Positions 17,276-22,481 of a stretch of DNA of 64,000 bases are shown piece by piece. The DNA is taken from the NCBI GenBank assembly GCA_963708365.1, contig CAVPSM010000011.1, forward strand, positions 251,807 to 315,806, written 5' to 3'. Positions within the stretch are counted from its first letter, which is position 1. Each line of letters begins with the position of its first letter. Origin of the DNA: an uncultured Actinomycetes bacterium (GTDB taxonomy: Bacteria; Actinomycetota; Thermoleophilia; Gaiellales; JAICJC01). Position numbers and translations under genes: made by a program. The notes under the pieces were generated by a model. The model ran no database searches. It saw nothing but the letters and a program-made list of their open reading frames with translations, and was not told where the DNA came from.

Positions 17276-17454
17276 GCTGCCAGCCAGGGCGATTCACGAC
17301 GCGGGCTTCTTGAAACGGTTCGTGAACCGCGCGCGTTTTACGAACCCTGTGGCTGGGAGTGGGAGCGCGGTAGCTGCCCGCCGCTGAGCGGTTTATTGCG
17401 GCTGCTCAGCGGCTCCATGGCGTGCGGATCGCCACAACCTGTCCGGACGCCTCG

Positions 17455-18075
17455 CTACGCCGACCCCGCCACCGCATGGCAGCGATCTTCGCGGAGGCAT
17501 TCGCGGGTTTCGCGGTAGGCGATTGTCTGCACCATGGAGCGGACGGGCACGTCGTCGTAGCGTTCGAGGATTGAGTCCGCGCAGGCGCGGATCTCGTCGG
17601 CTGGATGCGCGTCGCCGAACTCGCGGGCGAGGTCGGGGAGCATCCGCGCGAGTCGGACTTGGTGGGCGGTGCGGTTCTCGCGGACGCCGTCGAGCCTGTG
17701 GTCGATGAAGTCGCGGACGCGGTCTTCGATCTCGTCGCGAATGGCGCGCACCTCCTCCGTCGAGCGGCCGTGCGGGTCGGGGATGTCCCAGTCGTCGACG
17801 CGGGTAGGCACGTATGGGCAGGCGCCGCCGCAGCCGAGCGTGATCGCCCAATCGGCGTGCAGTTGCATCTCCAGATCGAGCTTCTTGGGGCGTTCGCGGG
17901 AGATGTCGATGCCGACCTCGCGCATCACCTCGACGACCTCGGGCCATGGTGTGGCAGCGGGTTCCTGGCCGGCGCTTTCGGCGCGGACATCCGCGGGGGC
18001 GTACGCGTTCCAGAAGGCCTGGGCGATCTGGGAGCGACCGGCGTTGTGGGTGCAGACAAACAGCACGTACTTCAT
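17455..18075 (-). CDS. arsC: Arsenate reductase ArsC with a C-terminal three-helix-bundle extension
   Basis: VLFVCTHNAGRSQ, LGCGGACP and DWDIPDP, then an ~70-aa helical tail ending VPVRSMVQTIAYRETRECLR. Confidence 0.82.
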   Translation of the reverse strand: MKYVLFVCTHNAGRSQIAQAFWNAYAPADVRAESAGQEPAATPWPEVVEVMREVGIDISRERPKKLDLEMQLHADWAITLGCGGACPYVPTRVDDWDIPDPHGRSTEEVRAIRDEIEDRVRDFIDHRLDGVRENRTAHQVRLARMLPDLAREFGDAHPADEIRACADSILERYDDVPVRSMVQTIAYRETRECLREDRCHAVAGSA

Positions 18076-18482
18076 GTCGCTTCCTCCTTTGCCGTTGCGA
18101 GCTCGACGGCGAGGGCGTCGACCCGCTCGCCGATCTGGTCGCGGATGCGGCGCACGTCGGCGAGCGGCCGGCCGGCGGGGTCGTCGAGCTCCCAGTCGAT
18201 GTAGTGCTTGGCGGGGACGTACGGGCACTCATCGCCACAGCCCATGGTGATGACGATGTCCGCCCACCCCATGTCGTCGGCGTCGAGCTTGTGCGGGCGC
18301 TTCCCAGCCAGGTCGACGCCGAGCTCGCCCATCACCTCGACGACCTCGGGGTGGACGTGCTCGGCGGGGCGGCTCCCCGCCGAACGAGCTTCATTGCCGC
18401 CCGTGGCGGCGCGGTCGAACAGGGCCTGGGCGATCTGAGAGCGACCGGCGTTCTGGATGCAGACAAACAGGACGTGGCTCAT
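18072..18482 (-). CDS. arsC: Arsenate reductase
   Basis: VLFVCIQNAGRSQ, MGCGDECP and DWELDDP motifs. Confidence 0.9.
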   Translation of the reverse strand: MSHVLFVCIQNAGRSQIAQALFDRAATGGNEARSAGSRPAEHVHPEVVEVMGELGVDLAGKRPHKLDADDMGWADIVITMGCGDECPYVPAKHYIDWELDDPAGRPLADVRRIRDQIGERVDALAVELATAKEEAT

Positions 18483-19186
18483 GCCGCCTCCCGCGCCGGT
18501 TCGGCGTCAGGCAGCTCTGCGGGCCGGTCGACGACGTCCCCGCGGAGGAACTGGTAGGTGAACGCTCCGACGGCGGCTCCGACGAGTGGCGCGGCCAGGT
18601 ACACCCAGATTGCGGTGTAGGTGCTGGATGCGATCGCGGGGCCGAGGCTGCGGGCCGGGTTCATGCTGGCGCCGGTGATCGGCCCGCCGAACATCGCGTC
18701 CAGGCCGACGGTGGCGCCGATCGCGATCGCCGCCGCCTCGCCGACCGCGCGCGTGTCGGTGGCGACGGCCATGATCACGAACATGAGCAGGAACGTCAGC
18801 ACGCCTTCCCACAGGAACGCCTGTCCGTCAGACCCGGACGGAAGCGTCGCGCCGACGTGGGCGATGTTGCCGAGCGAGCCGCGAAGGACGAGGGCCGCGG
18901 CGAGTGCACCGGCGAGCTGGGCCGTCCAGTAGAGCGGGACGCGCGGCCAGGGGAAGTGGCGAGAGATGGCGAACGCGAAGCTGACGGCCGGGTTGAAGTG
19001 CGCGCCGGAGATGTGGCCGACGGCGTAGATCATCACCATGATCACCAACCCGAAGCTGATCGCCACGCCGACGTGGCCGAGCGCCCCCGTCTTCGCGTCG
19101 ACCATGATCGCGCCACACCCGGCGAAGACGAGCGCGAAGGTGCCGACCACCTCCGCAAGAAGCGCCCGCGCCAGCCGCACGTCCAT
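18479..19186 (-). CDS. MIP/aquaporin channel (AqpS-like arsenite channel)
   Basis: HISGAHFNPAVS and GASMNPARS NPA motifs; located inside the ars operon. Confidence 0.9.
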   Translation of the reverse strand: MDVRLARALLAEVVGTFALVFAGCGAIMVDAKTGALGHVGVAISFGLVIMVMIYAVGHISGAHFNPAVSFAFAISRHFPWPRVPLYWTAQLAGALAAALVLRGSLGNIAHVGATLPSGSDGQAFLWEGVLTFLLMFVIMAVATDTRAVGEAAAIAIGATVGLDAMFGGPITGASMNPARSLGPAIASSTYTAIWVYLAAPLVGAAVGAFTYQFLRGDVVDRPAELPDAEPAREAA

Positions 19187-20007
19187 CAGCAGCAGCCCGC
19201 CCTCGTCGCCGGCTCGATCACCGGCAGCCCTTTGGCCCCGGGCTGGGTCGTCTTCTGGGCCTTGACGATCGCGCCATACATCCCGTCGGCGACCTCGTGC
19301 GTGAACACGACGGAGACCTGCTCGAGGCCGGCGGCTTCGAGGCCGGCCTCGTACTCGGCCTTCGATAGGGCGCCTGCGATGCAGCCGACGTAGCTGCCGC
19401 GTTCGGCGCGCTGCTCGGCCTTGAGCTCGTCGTCCGCGACGATGTCGCTGATGCCGAGCCGTCCGCCCGGCCGAAGCACCCGGCTGATCTCGGCCAGCAC
19501 CGCCGGCTTGTCCGTGGAGAGGTTGATCACGCAGTTGGAGATGACCACGTCGACCGAGTCGGCGGGAAGCGGGATCTGCTCGATCAACCCCTTCAGGAAG
19601 TGGACGTTTCGAACGCCCGCGTCGCGGGCGTTCTGCTGCGCCAGGGCGAGCATCTCGTCGGTCATGTCCACGCCGTAGGCGGTGCCCGTTTCGCCGACGC
19701 GCTTGGCGGAGAGGATCACGTCGATGCCGCCGCCCGAGCCCAGGTCGAGCACGGTCTCGCCCTCGTGCAGGTCCGCGACCGCGGTCGGGTTGCCACAGCC
19801 GAGCGAGGCGAGCACAGCAGCATCAGGAAGCTCGTCGCGCTCCTCGGCGGCGTACAGCGCCTCGCCGAACCTGCCGCGTTCGGTGTTGTCCGCGCAGCAC
19901 TCGCCCGACCCACACGCACAACCGGCGCCTTCGCCGCGAACGACTCGGGCCGACTCGGCGTATTTCGACCGCACCTGCTCGCGCAACTCATCCGCACTTG
20001 TCGTCAT
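19186..20007 (-). CDS. arsM: Arsenite S-adenosylmethionine methyltransferase
   Basis: SLGCGNP, VLDLGSGGGID, ISNCVINLS and GCIAGAL motifs; C-terminal CC. Confidence 0.92.
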   Translation of the reverse strand: MTTSADELREQVRSKYAESARVVRGEGAGCACGSGECCADNTERGRFGEALYAAEERDELPDAAVLASLGCGNPTAVADLHEGETVLDLGSGGGIDVILSAKRVGETGTAYGVDMTDEMLALAQQNARDAGVRNVHFLKGLIEQIPLPADSVDVVISNCVINLSTDKPAVLAEISRVLRPGGRLGISDIVADDELKAEQRAERGSYVGCIAGALSKAEYEAGLEAAGLEQVSVVFTHEVADGMYGAIVKAQKTTQPGAKGLPVIEPATRAGCC

Positions 20008-20348
20008 CAGCAACACGCTCCCTTCAGATCCGCCACGGCAGCCAACGTCTCGACGGCCTCGGGCCGAAGCGAGAAGTACGCCCACTTGCCCCGCTGCTCG
20101 CGCTCGAGCAGTCCGGCGTCCGTCAGCTTCTTCAGATGATGCGAGACGGTCGGCTGCGACAGGCCCAGCGGCTCGATCAGATGGCACACGCACACCGGCT
20201 CGCCAGTCGTGGCAAGCACGTTCACGATCCGCACCCGAGCCGGGTCGGAAAGCGCCTTGAATACATCCGCCGTCGCCGCCGCCTGCTCATCCGAAAGCGT
20301 CGCAGCGGCCAACGGACCGCAACAGGAAACGGCCTCGACCGCGCTCAC
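20007..20348 (-). CDS. arsR: ArsR/SmtB family repressor
   Basis: SCCGP, FKALSDPARVRI, VCVCH and SQPTVSHHLKKL motifs; C-terminal CC. Confidence 0.92.
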   Translation of the reverse strand: MSAVEAVSCCGPLAAATLSDEQAAATADVFKALSDPARVRIVNVLATTGEPVCVCHLIEPLGLSQPTVSHHLKKLTDAGLLEREQRGKWAYFSLRPEAVETLAAVADLKGACC

Positions 20349-20482
20349 GGCCTCCCCCAACGCAACGCCTTGTCGCGCGCATCGGCAAGCACCGCCTCGC
20401 GGCGACACGCAGCGTCGCACACACTCCCGCAGCCATCGCAGAAGTCGACCACCAACTCCCTGTCCCTTCGGAATCTCAGCAC
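20345..20482 (-). CDS. 45-aa Cys-rich peptide (C-x2-C-x3-C-x3-C), first ORF of the ars operon
   Basis: AGGAGG RBS 6 nt before GTG; translation MLRFRRDRELVVDFCDGCGSVCDAACRREAVLADARDKALRWGRP; stop overlaps the arsR start (GTGA). Not in the ORF track. Confidence 0.75.
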   Translation of the reverse strand: MLRFRRDRELVVDFCDGCGSVCDAACRREAVLADARDKALRWGRP

Positions 20483-20501
20483 GATTCGCCTCCTACGTTA
20501 T

Positions 20502-20535
20502 ATCGACTGACGTCAATGTATCGAAGGAAGTCGAT
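20502..20535. promoter_or_regulatory. Tandem ArsR operator boxes
   Basis: ATCGA-N6-TCAAT-GT-ATCGA-N6-TCGAT directly upstream of the ars operon RBS. Confidence 0.7.
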
Positions 20536-20657
20536 TCATGCAAACTTGCGCGGACGCCCGGGCTCGCGCTCGCGGCCCCCTTGAGAGGGTGCCTTACACC
20601 CTTAGTGGTCGTCAGTGACCGGGAGTGATTCGAGAGACGCCGGCGGGCGCCGGGCCG

Positions 20658-22481
20658 CTACTCGACCGTGACGGTCTTCGCCAGGTTCCGCGGCTTGTCG
20701 ACGTCGAGGCCGCGGCGCGTGGCGATGGCGTAGGCGAGCTGCTGCAGCGGCAGCACCGCCAGCACGGGCTGGAGCTCCGGCTCGGTGCGCGGCAGGTAGA
20801 GCACGTGCTCGGCCAGCTCGCGGATGCCCTCGTTGCCCTCGGTCGCGACCGCGATCACGTGGGCGCCGCGGGCACGCACCTCCTCGATGTTCGACACGAC
20901 CTTCTCGTAGACGTGCCCGTCGGTCGCGATCACGACCACCGGCGTCGAGTCGTCGAGCAGCGCGATCGGGCCATGCTTCATCTCCCCGGCGGCGTACGCG
21001 TCGGTCGAGATGTAGGAGATCTCCTTCAGCTTGAGCGCGCCCTCGAGCGCGATCGGCAGGCCGATGTTGCGGCCCAGGTAGAGGAAGAACTCGTTGCCGG
21101 CGAAGCGGTCGGCGATCGGCTCGACGAGCTCGCCCCGCTCGAGCGTCTGCCGAACGAGGTCGGGGAGCGACCGCACCTGGGTGAGCAGCGTCTCGGCCCG
21201 CTCGCCGGTGACGGTGCCCCTGATCGTGCCCAGGCGCAGCGCGAGCAGGTAGAGCAGCGTGAGCTGCGCGGTGAACGTCTTCGACGCGGCGACCCCGATC
21301 TCGAGCCCGGCCCGGGTGTAGAGCACCGAGTCGCACTCGCGCGTCATCTGGCTGCCCATCACGTTCGTGATCGCGAGCACATGCGCGCCACGTGCGCGGG
21401 CCTCCTTCATCGCCGCGAGCGTGTCGATCGTCTCGCCCGACTGAGCGATCGCGATCACGAGCGTGTTCTCGTCGATCACGGCGTGGCGGTAGCGCCACTC
21501 GCTGGCGATGTCCGACTCGGACGGGATCCGTGCCCACTCCTCGAGCAGGTAGCGGCCGACGAGGCCGGCGTGGTACGACGTCCCGCAGGCCAGGAACACG
21601 ATCCGGGAGAGGCCGCGGATCTGCTCGTCGGTCAGGTTCAGCCCGTCGAGCTGGAGCTGCCCGTGGTAGAGCCGCTCACCGATGGTCTCGGCGATCGCGT
21701 CGGGCTGCTCCCAGATCTCCTTGAGCATGAACGTGTCGTAGCCCTGCTTCTCGGCAGCGTCTTCGTCCCACTCGACCTCCTGCACCTCGCGCTCGATCAG
21801 GGTGCCGTCGCCGGAGAGGAACGTGGCGCCGTCGGTGCGGGCGACGACGATCTCATCGTCGAACACGTGCTGTACCTTGCGCGTCTCGGCCAGGAACGCC
21901 GGGATGGCGGAGGCCATGAACATCTCGCCCTCGCCGACACCGACGACGAGCGGGCAGCCGCGCCGGGCGGCGACCAGCACACCGGGGCTGTCCTGGTGGG
22001 CGACCGCGAACGCGAAGTGCCCGTCGAGCCGCTGGTACGCCTTGTGCACGGCCTCGACCAGGTCACCGTCGTAGCACTCCTCGACCAGGTGGGCGATGGC
22101 CTCCGTGTCGGTGTCCGAGTGGTAGACGTGGCCGGCCTCGGACAGCTCGCGCCGCAGCGCCGCGTAGTTCTCGATGATGCCGTTGTGGACGACGGTGACG
22201 CCCGAGCCCTCGCAGGCCTCGATCGGGTGGGCGTTGGCTTCGATCACACCGCCGTGCGTGGCCCAGCGGGTGTGGGCGAGACCGGTCGTCGCCGGATGCG
22301 ACGACTCGCCGACGGCGTCCCGCAGCACGGCCACCTTGCCGACGCGGCGGGTGATGTCGGCACGGCCGTTGATCAGGCAGATGCCGGCGGAGTCATAGCC
22401 GCGGTACTCCAGCCGCTCGAGCCCCGTCAGCAGCAGCTCCTTGCACGGGCGCCCACCCACATATCCGACGATCCCGCACAT
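20658..22481 (-). CDS. glmS: Glutamine--fructose-6-phosphate transaminase
   Basis: MCGIVGY, LEYRGYDSAG, HTRWATHG and PRNLAKTVTVE motifs. Confidence 0.97.
   Translation of the reverse strand: MCGIVGYVGGRPCKELLLTGLERLEYRGYDSAGICLINGRADITRRVGKVAVLRDAVGESSHPATTGLAHTRWATHGGVIEANAHPIEACEGSGVTVVHNGIIENYAALRRELSEAGHVYHSDTDTEAIAHLVEECYDGDLVEAVHKAYQRLDGHFAFAVAHQDSPGVLVAARRGCPLVVGVGEGEMFMASAIPAFLAETRKVQHVFDDEIVVARTDGATFLSGDGTLIEREVQEVEWDEDAAEKQGYDTFMLKEIWEQPDAIAETIGERLYHGQLQLDGLNLTDEQIRGLSRIVFLACGTSYHAGLVGRYLLEEWARIPSESDIASEWRYRHAVIDENTLVIAIAQSGETIDTLAAMKEARARGAHVLAITNVMGSQMTRECDSVLYTRAGLEIGVAASKTFTAQLTLLYLLALRLGTIRGTVTGERAETLLTQVRSLPDLVRQTLERGELVEPIADRFAGNEFFLYLGRNIGLPIALEGALKLKEISYISTDAYAAGEMKHGPIALLDDSTPVVVIATDGHVYEKVVSNIEEVRARGAHVIAVATEGNEGIRELAEHVLYLPRTEPELQPVLAVLPLQQLAYAIATRRGLDVDKPRNLAKTVTVE

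Follow-up and report, generated by a model that had tools for sequence, protein, structure and literature searches.

A four-cysteine microprotein of an unnamed family in arsenic resistance operons of Gaiellales and other Actinomycetota

Introduction

ArsD is an operon-encoded As(III) chaperone that carries a cluster of cysteines and passes As(III) to a partner enzyme; it has about 120 amino acids (aa), a thioredoxin-like fold and a Cys12-Cys13-Cys18 site, and its partner is ArsA. SmtA has a zinc-finger-like core, CopZ, a protein of about 70 aa with a ferredoxin-like fold and a single MxCxxC motif, metallates its own repressor, CopY, and rubredoxin binds iron through two CxxCG knuckles about 30 residues apart. 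These are the described systems with which we compare a 45-codon open reading frame (ORF) with four cysteines, which stands at the head of an arsenic resistance (ars) operon in a stretch of 64,000 nucleotides, hereafter the window, from an uncultured Actinomycetes bacterium of the Gaiellales (NCBI GenBank assembly GCA_963708365.1, contig CAVPSM010000011.1, positions 251,807 to 315,806 of the forward strand). The source assembly amounts to 4.06 Mb and is 79% complete.

The ars operons are among the best-catalogued bacterial gene sets, yet the family to which this ORF belongs is unnamed, although it counts at least 180 clusters and is almost exclusive to ars clusters. The ORF encodes a cytosolic microprotein of this family, which is an optional member of ArsR-controlled operons, and those operons make or destroy trivalent (methyl)arsenicals. 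That the product is a real, conserved and ars-specific small protein we regard as nearly certain; its function can be proposed with far less confidence.

The gene and its start and stop signals

The gene and the signals that delimit it are the following.

20345..20482, minus strand: four-cysteine microprotein gene, 45 aa, GTG start, stop codon included; VLRFRRDRELVVDFCDGCGSVCDAACRREAVLADARDKALRWGRP
20489..20494, minus strand: Shine-Dalgarno sequence AGGAGG, 6 nt 5' of the microprotein GTG
20345..20348, minus strand: GTGA stop/start overlap of the microprotein gene and arsR, which couples both genes

The cysteines of the window peptide are laid out as C15-x2-C18-x3-C22-x3-C26, and the core motif of the family is V-x-F-C-[DE]-x-C-[GAS]-x-V-C-x3-C-R. 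An N-terminal extension is impossible, because an in-frame TAA lies six codons 5' of the GTG start; at the other end, the stop codon TGA (20347-20345) overlaps the GTG of arsR at 20348. Purine runs resembling a Shine-Dalgarno sequence occur in homologous loci at the position equivalent to the AGGAGG of the window. The original prediction, made from the letters of this DNA, had described a 45-aa ORF with an AGGAGG ribosome-binding site, the C-x2-C-x3-C-x3-C motif and a GTGA overlap into arsR, and every one of these statements about the sequence holds. The ORF had also been called unannotated, which is right for the PLSDB gene table of one Streptomyces plasmid, from which it is absent, but not for several NCBI records, where homologues appear as a "hypothetical protein".

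Conservation of the family

With the single sequence as query, a word-indexed search returned two close proteins and an exhaustive search 24 representative clusters (best E value 1.2e-7). A profile of 49 members extended this to 180 protein clusters at E ≤ 1e-3, the best at 7.6e-19, with lengths that are nearly all 46-50 aa and with labels that read either "hypothetical protein" or refer automatically to a cysteine cluster. The 49-row alignment shows no variation at F14, C15, C18, V21 and C22 and at least 90% conservation at C26 and R27; the full C-x2-C-x3-C-x3-C spacing is kept in 129 of the 140 family proteins retrieved. Ratios of nonsynonymous to synonymous substitution (dN/dS) by the Nei-Gojobori method are 0.16-0.5 for the closest pairs (dS 0.15-0.9), with a median of 0.55 over the 539 pairs having 0.1 < dS < 2; since these ratios lie below 1 and synonymous change is free, purifying selection acts on the peptide.

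Regarding known families, the window peptide has no match in Pfam at E ≤ 1 and two matches in NCBIfam, both at chance level; the same scan of the 49 members gave nothing above chance, and the relatives found in the ESM Atlas are unnamed "hypothetical protein" clusters only. A search for longer relatives that might represent fused forms, a weak search, gave a single match, which is an over-extended ORF call. Full-text literature searches, whose reach did not extend to subscription-only papers, yielded no description of the family, nor did a look-up of terms in a 2018 review (PMC6205960). The earlier statement that no named ars gene has this form thus stands within these sources, for the family has neither a Pfam or NCBIfam model nor a description that we found.

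Occurrence and gene orders

Homologues that share the cysteine spacing occur at 117 loci, and the check that had been proposed for the prediction, conserved spacing beside ars genes, comes out clearly positive. In 61 related genomes, strong matches (E < 1e-15) are confined to G000, the genome of the window, with two copies, and to G022 and G029, all other rows having E ≥ 0.05. Among 401 genomes sampled across the phylum, 13 match at E ≤ 1e-3 by profile score alone. A scan with one genome per species gave 37 loci, mostly from Gaiellaceae, Thermoleophilia and other actinomycetotal metagenome-assembled genomes (MAGs), with one Verrucomicrobiota MAG and one Chloroflexia MAG outside the Actinomycetota, and a metagenome scan gave 122 confirmed relatives, of which 80 were kept. 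Isolates that carry the small ORF belong to Streptomyces, Kribbella, Pilimelia, Spirilliplanes and Micromonospora.

The 117 loci were classified by tblastn with the ars proteins of the window and five further ars proteins taken from the loci. After 15 were dropped as duplicate peptides, 102 remained, and 98 of these are informative, the other four ending right after the ORF. Having been found by searching for the ORF, they are an ascertained sample, and their counts are not a frequency among ars operons generally. Their gene orders, as loci out of 102, are as follows.

Small ORF followed by arsR: 76 (68 with arsM next; in 8 the contig ends first)
Small ORF directly before arsM: 6 (arsR upstream and co-oriented in 3, divergent in 1)
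Small ORF followed by a flavoprotein gene of about 460 codons, arsR divergent: 8
arsM before the small ORF: 2 (L171 and L128)
arsR divergent, downstream gene unassigned: 1
Contig ends right after the small ORF: 4 (uninformative)
No ars match in the tally tblastn: 5 (two of them, L049 and L070, do have nearby ars genes)

Ars genes therefore adjoin the small ORF in 95 of the 98 informative loci, with L058, L073 and L167 as the exceptions; orphan small ORFs number three. Where the small ORF precedes arsR, the two genes overlap by 4 nt (NTGA) or 1 nt (TGATG) in 24 of 26 genome loci. The claim that the microprotein heads the operon is accurate for the window and for most loci, and does not extend to those in which the ORF lies between arsR and arsM or after arsM. 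Of the latter kind, L171 has its own GGAAGGA in front of the ORF, and the ORF of L128 also has its own Shine-Dalgarno sequence; in L065 and L163 the ORF stands beside arsM with no adjacent arsR, and arsR is divergent from it in the eight flavoprotein loci, in L164 and in L169.

Another arrangement is that of the flavoprotein-type operon of Streptomyces, Pilimelia, Spirilliplanes and Kribbella, which comprises the small ORF, the flavoprotein, ArsI/CadI and an ArsK-like transporter of the major facilitator superfamily. The flavoprotein, of about 460 aa, is only distantly related to ArsO (about 50 bits, the cutoff being 425). Flavin monooxygenases are the closest relatives of solved structure over its length, its match to thioredoxin reductase being limited to the N-terminal dinucleotide motif; it is a candidate for a new organoarsenical enzyme. 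An ArsO-like flavoprotein gene is also found downstream in four ArsM loci. On a Streptomyces linear plasmid, the flavoprotein operon lies inside a larger ars island, and the gene table omits the small ORF.

Several loci deserve a record of their own. An NAD(P)/FAD protein of about 460 aa follows the small ORF in L068, L069, L071, L074, L063, L072, L064, L153 and L094, a list made up of the same four genera and one metagenome contig. In L128, a single metagenome contig, a 102-codon ORF (717-1022) lies between arsM and the small ORF. The Verrucomicrobiota MAG (L042) has the small ORF with arsR-arsM, its ArsR and ArsM being about 74% identical to the Thermoleophilia versions, and represents either a horizontal transfer or a binning error. 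In the Chloroflexia MAG (L070, GC 49%) there is no ATG, GTG or TTG start in the expected range. Finally, in the MAG loci L049, L053, L060 and L066, arsR and/or arsM are split into several tblastn frames next to an intact small ORF, so that these are either decaying operons or assembly errors.

The second copy in G000 lies outside the window, at about 70.7-71.6 kb of G000:C11 (L021 5726-6560, minus strand), and is rearranged. Its ArsR-type boxes are identical, and its 45-aa ORF is intact and differs from the window copy by 4 aa (dN/dS 0.16). The GTGA here begins what is left of a MIP gene, its last 80 codons, and arsC follows; arsR, arsM and the 5' part of the MIP gene are missing. A Na+/H+ exchanger gene and DyP-peroxidase/encapsulin genes flank this copy.

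Predicted fold

The AlphaFold2 model computed from the 49-row alignment has a mean predicted local distance difference test score (pLDDT) of 76.2, with successive blocks at 57, 81, 85, 85 and 68 and the core at 81-85. It places two strands, at residues 12-15 and 20-23, ahead of a helix at 24-42. The hairpin turn has C15 on one side and C18 on the other, C22 stands at the end of the second strand and C26 falls in the first helical turn, so that all four thiols lie within a 12-residue stretch. The model thus predicts a CxxC hairpin knuckle plus a helix. In 128 of 129 members, C18 is followed by G, A or S, and CxxCG is the classical metal-knuckle signature.

Structural comparisons gave echoes rather than relatives. 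Foldseek on the PDB found no significant neighbour (best E 0.73), and neither did a VIA-wide structure search (Z at most 2.8), a 45-residue model giving little power to both. A sequence profile search of the PDB had its best match, at a non-significant E of 0.052, in the PKC C1 knuckle "TFCDHCGS". The weak, non-significant echoes are all to small zinc fingers, namely UBZ, Sgf11, AN1 and the PKC C1 knuckle.

Operator, promoter and downstream genes

Upstream of the microprotein gene, two palindromes and two promoter-like hexamers can be placed.

20520..20535, minus strand: ArsR-type palindrome 1, ATCGACTTCCTTCGAT, within the promoter spacer
20502..20517, minus strand: ArsR-type palindrome 2, ATTGACGTCAGTCGAT, from reading of the sequence and a motif scan
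20538..20543, minus strand: -35-like hexamer TTGCAT, which aligns with TTGACA of Gaiellaceae homologues, by comparison only
20515..20520, minus strand: putative -10-like hexamer TACATT, 17 nt past the -35-like hexamer, TATATT in homologues

The pattern ATYGA-N6-TCGAT occurs at just these two sites in the 64-kb window, which makes three matches counting both strands against 0.22 expected, and a longer composite motif is found in only two places in the 4.06-Mb assembly, each preceding a copy of the four-cysteine ORF. The position of palindrome 1 is kept in most of the homologous loci examined, and in both main gene arrangements the ORF lies immediately behind operator-like palindromes. The gene adjoins arsR and lies behind conserved palindromes, which are putative sites of the repressor. 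A consensus scan of 17300-20700 called no sigma-70-like promoter at its threshold, and in the same interval there is one terminator-like hairpin, inside arsR, at chance level.

The genes that follow the microprotein gene in the window are all on the same strand.

20007..20348, minus strand: arsR, 113 aa, Rv2640c-like ArsR/SmtB protein with an HTH_5 domain (Pfam/NCBIfam)
19186..20004, minus strand: arsM, arsenite methyltransferase, 272 aa (293.7 bits with NF008823, whose cutoff is 263)
18479..19186, minus strand: MIP-family channel, 235 aa, its start overlapping the arsM stop by 1 nt
18072..18482, minus strand: arsC, arsenate reductase of the low-molecular-weight protein tyrosine phosphatase (LMW-PTP) type, 136 aa (family scans)
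17455..18078, minus strand: second arsC, 207 aa, LMW-PTP plus a C-terminal three-helix-bundle domain (NF046112)

The closest NCBIfam match of ArsR is the Rv2640c family, below its cutoff, and its cysteines form an N-terminal CC, a VCVC and a C-terminal CC. Along 17455-20482, the junctions are, in order, GTGA, a 2-nt gap, TGATG, ATGA and a 7-nt overlap; short gaps or overlaps at every junction suggest that translation is tightly coupled all the way from the microprotein gene to the last arsC. Vicinal Cys-Cys tails end both ArsR (...KGACC, 20007-20015) and ArsM (...AGCC, 19186-19197), and they may serve as capture tails for As(III) or trivalent methylarsenite, MAs(III). All 69 ArsM alignments extending to the C-terminus show this CC end, whether or not the operon contains the small ORF.

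Proposed function

Across the gene orders, the neighbours of the microprotein, namely ArsM, ArsI, the flavoprotein resembling flavin monooxygenases, the ArsK-like exporter and ArsR, differ from one another; what they seem to have in common is that they handle trivalent arsenic or methylarsenite at cysteines. These neighbours, taken with the predicted C4 knuckle-helix, favour an induced thiol buffer or carrier. On this sequence evidence our first choice, held tentatively and at a little under an even chance, is a trans-acting thiol buffer or chaperone for As(III) or MAs(III). The original prediction had named as possible roles an As(III)/MAs(III) chelator or chaperone, a co-regulator of ArsR and an Fe-S/Zn redox partner, and the gene context does no more than shift the odds among them.

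The palindromes upstream, the ORF's own Shine-Dalgarno sequence and the stop that overlaps the arsR start suggest that the microprotein would be made only when arsenite lifts ArsR repression, in step with ArsR. Its thiol cluster would coordinate As(III) with three thiolates or MAs(III) with two, possibly displacing a Zn(II) bound at rest; zinc-finger peptides of the C3H and C4 types are known to bind As(III). Acting in trans as an induced buffer or carrier, the microprotein would shield cellular thiols from trivalent arsenic and deliver that arsenic to the cysteine sites of ArsM, ArsI, the flavoprotein and possibly ArsR. ArsM accepts As(III) faster in thiol-bound than in free form, and, since both ArsR and ArsM of this lineage end in Cys-Cys, sites for a thiol-to-thiol hand-over exist. 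Moreover, the peptide is kept in five gene orders, with no RNA structure or synonymous constraint, which argues that it acts as a free protein. A more specific version, in which the microprotein would be the first dedicated arsenic carrier of the methylation branch, a C4 knuckle-helix that moves As(III)/MAs(III) among ArsR, ArsM, ArsI and efflux, appears possible, at somewhat under an even chance. In a bolder variant, it may be an arsenite-sensitive zinc switch made 1:1 with ArsR, and so a second, post-transcriptional layer of sensing.

Several observations weigh against a buffer or carrier, the first of them from the genus of the window. An ArsM orthologue (E ≤ 1e-40) is present in 17 of its 31 genomes, a count that takes in one unpublished genome, G016, as a non-match. 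The small ORF is found in three of the 15 arsR-arsM loci inspected (G000, G022 and G029), and the other 12 orthologous operons are without it; it is therefore an accessory, dispensable cistron. Those 12 loci have the promoter, the same palindromes and a Shine-Dalgarno sequence directly before arsR, which starts at the equivalent MS(A/T)VE... position. Carriers and non-carriers are interleaved in the genus clade of an ArsM tree with 35 rows, on which the with/without label needs at least three changes (four on the best tree); the carriers outside the genus came from the ORF searches, and the ancestral state is not readable from this tree. Judged by these comparisons, the four-cysteine ORF is an optional, dispensable cistron that is prone to gain and loss. 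In addition, the remaining 11 of the 140 family members have lost one cysteine, mostly through a single substitution, and the listed records that contain this DNA stretch are all DNA contigs, nearly all of them labelled as soil metagenomes, with no RNA run among them. Four cysteines limit each molecule to one arsenic, a low capacity if it were purely a sink, and the C4 site could equally hold structural zinc or iron, with arsenic taking no direct part. Lastly, the near-universal overlap with the start of arsR fits a role centred on ArsR at least as well.

Alternative explanations

The alternative that survives best is such a role, in which the microprotein would be an accessory regulator of ArsR: a co-repressor, an anti-repressor or an As(III) donor in the manner of CopZ and CopY, with the C4 site as the switch, whereby the arsenic response would be sharpened or widened. 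It is the near-universal overlap, an arrangement typical of proteins that are made together, that keeps this explanation alive. Moreover, an arsR of one subtype, with Rv2640c as its best match, adjoins the ORF in most loci and is directly downstream of it in the 76 loci of the commonest order, and the ORF comes immediately behind the operator in both main arrangements. However, ArsR looks the same in operons that have the ORF and in those that lack it, down to every cysteine group, including the N-terminal CC, VCxC and the C-terminal CC, and so ArsR needs no partner; the ArsM proteins are otherwise alike too. The loci in which the ORF stands beside arsM with no adjacent arsR (L065 and L163), or after arsM (L171 and L128), likewise speak against a partner of ArsR, and on balance we consider one unlikely.

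We see a somewhat poorer prospect for a redox microprotein with a Zn(Cys)4 or Fe(Cys)4 site, akin to rubredoxin. As an electron or thiol-disulfide partner, such a protein might return the catalytic disulfide of ArsM or ArsC to its reduced state or cooperate with the neighbouring flavoprotein. The flavoprotein neighbours keep this explanation alive, the NAD(P)/FAD protein of about 460 aa being encoded next in eight loci and the ArsO-like one being downstream in the four ArsM loci; the CxxCG knuckle within a four-cysteine site, some automatic source labels that point to Fe-S cysteine clusters, and weak NCBIfam echoes of the window peptide to PorD/KorD (E 0.01) also agree with it. Against this, the flavoprotein is absent from most loci, its nearest solved relatives over its length, flavin monooxygenases, need no protein partner, and the second cysteine pair, C-x3-C, falls in the helix, where it forms no second knuckle; nor do the 49 members have a rubredoxin, ferredoxin or CxxCxxCC match in Pfam beyond single chance-level hits. 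A pairing of rubredoxin and reductase type with the Streptomyces flavoprotein, considered as a candidate, is weakened by that same kinship of the flavoprotein over its length.

It is improbable that the ORF is a cis-acting leader, in which translation of the short frame, and not its product, would set ribosome re-initiation on arsR, and in which the nascent cysteine cluster could conceivably respond to arsenite or thiol status. Such a leader would account for the fact that in the great majority of loci the ORF is the cistron next to the promoter, for the obligatory-looking overlap with the arsR start, and for a distance from the first cysteine to the stop that is fixed at 31-34 residues in 121 of 129 members. 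The arsR-coupled form also ends in G-x-R codons that are purine-rich, where the Shine-Dalgarno sequence of arsR would be, and these codons are absent from the uncoupled Streptomyces form. Yet the peptide is kept before arsM, after arsM, before the flavoprotein and as an orphan, its synonymous sites diverge freely, and a compact fold is predicted for it. Its cysteine codons are spaced, whereas the leaders of Cys attenuators carry them clustered. As to the mRNA, the window sequence, the one that was folded, has a minimum free energy of -83.3 kcal/mol against a mean of -84.2 kcal/mol for shuffled sequences (z 0.23), and 117 of 200 shuffles fold as well. An explanation by RNA structure was rejected on this absence of an unusual fold.

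A spurious frame, be it a chance opening in GC-rich leader DNA (short ORFs are common at about 70% GC) or an extension of arsR at its N-terminus (an alternative, longer frame for arsR starts at 20420), is hardly credible and effectively refuted by the family-wide conservation of residues, the size of the family, a dN/dS below 1, the ORF's own Shine-Dalgarno sequence, its fixed length and several gene orders, and by the operons without the ORF, whose arsR begins at the same MS(A/T)VE... position.

Significance

The family is concentrated in Gaiellaceae and other Thermoleophilia from many soil metagenomes and is tied there to arsM, which controls the formation of toxic and volatile methylarsenicals in soils. 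If the proposed function is true, an unrecognised ars gene is common in soil Gaiellales and Thermoleophilia and present in Streptomyces and Micromonosporaceae. An arsenic carrier or buffer would give the methylation and organoarsenical branch the counterpart of ArsD that it has lacked, and would offer a natural As(III)-binding module of 45 residues, of interest for biosensors. Should the microprotein instead tune ArsR, a textbook repressor circuit would gain a new layer.

Comparison with known systems

By analogy, the microprotein resembles ArsD in being an operon-encoded, ArsR-controlled accessory protein with a cysteine cluster, and both are dispensable, ArsD for basal resistance. It differs in its 45 aa, in its C-x2-C-x3-C-x3-C knuckle-helix and in having no vicinal cysteine pair, and the ArsD family model matches neither the window peptide nor any of the 49 members. 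Moreover, there is no arsA in the window operon (arsR, arsM, MIP, arsC, arsC), so that the partners would be ArsM, ArsI or ArsR.

With SmtA/BmtA and their repressor SmtB, the likeness is that of a small cysteine protein whose gene lies directly behind, or divergent from, that of an ArsR/SmtB repressor. The microprotein has four cysteines, no conserved histidine and one site, as opposed to a multi-metal cluster; PF02069 matches neither the window peptide nor the 49 members; and its context is that of arsenic methylation and organoarsenical genes, not of zinc. The CopZ-CopY pair of Enterococcus hirae, in which a small CxxC protein is encoded in the operon of the repressor, offers a model for the delivery of an inducer, with metal, fold and family all different from those of the microprotein.

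The C4 and C3H zinc fingers (UBZ, AN1, PKC C1) and the knuckles of rubredoxin share the hairpin knuckle plus helix, predicted here, and CxxCG. The microprotein departs from them in having four ligands within 12 residues and a second pair, C-x3-C, that is neither a knuckle nor H-x3-H. Compared with rubredoxin in particular, it has one CxxC[GAS] knuckle only, the second pair sitting at the junction of hairpin and helix, and the rubredoxin Pfam model matches neither the window peptide nor the 49 members. Its spacing also differs from that of 4Fe-4S ferredoxins (CxxCxxCxxxCP) and of the CxxCxxCC of YcgN; one of the 49 members matches Fer4_6, at E 0.027, and none matches the CxxCxxCC model. Leader peptides and upstream ORFs have in common with it a short first cistron with a stop that overlaps the next start, whereas the microprotein is also kept where an action on arsR is impossible, and no unusual RNA structure was found.

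The sequence-defined features of membership that were tested are all absent, and the microprotein thus appears to be non-homologous to ArsD, SmtA and CopZ. By analogy with these systems, it is probably a metal(loid)-thiol protein that a resistance operon encodes as an accessory, without homology to those already known.

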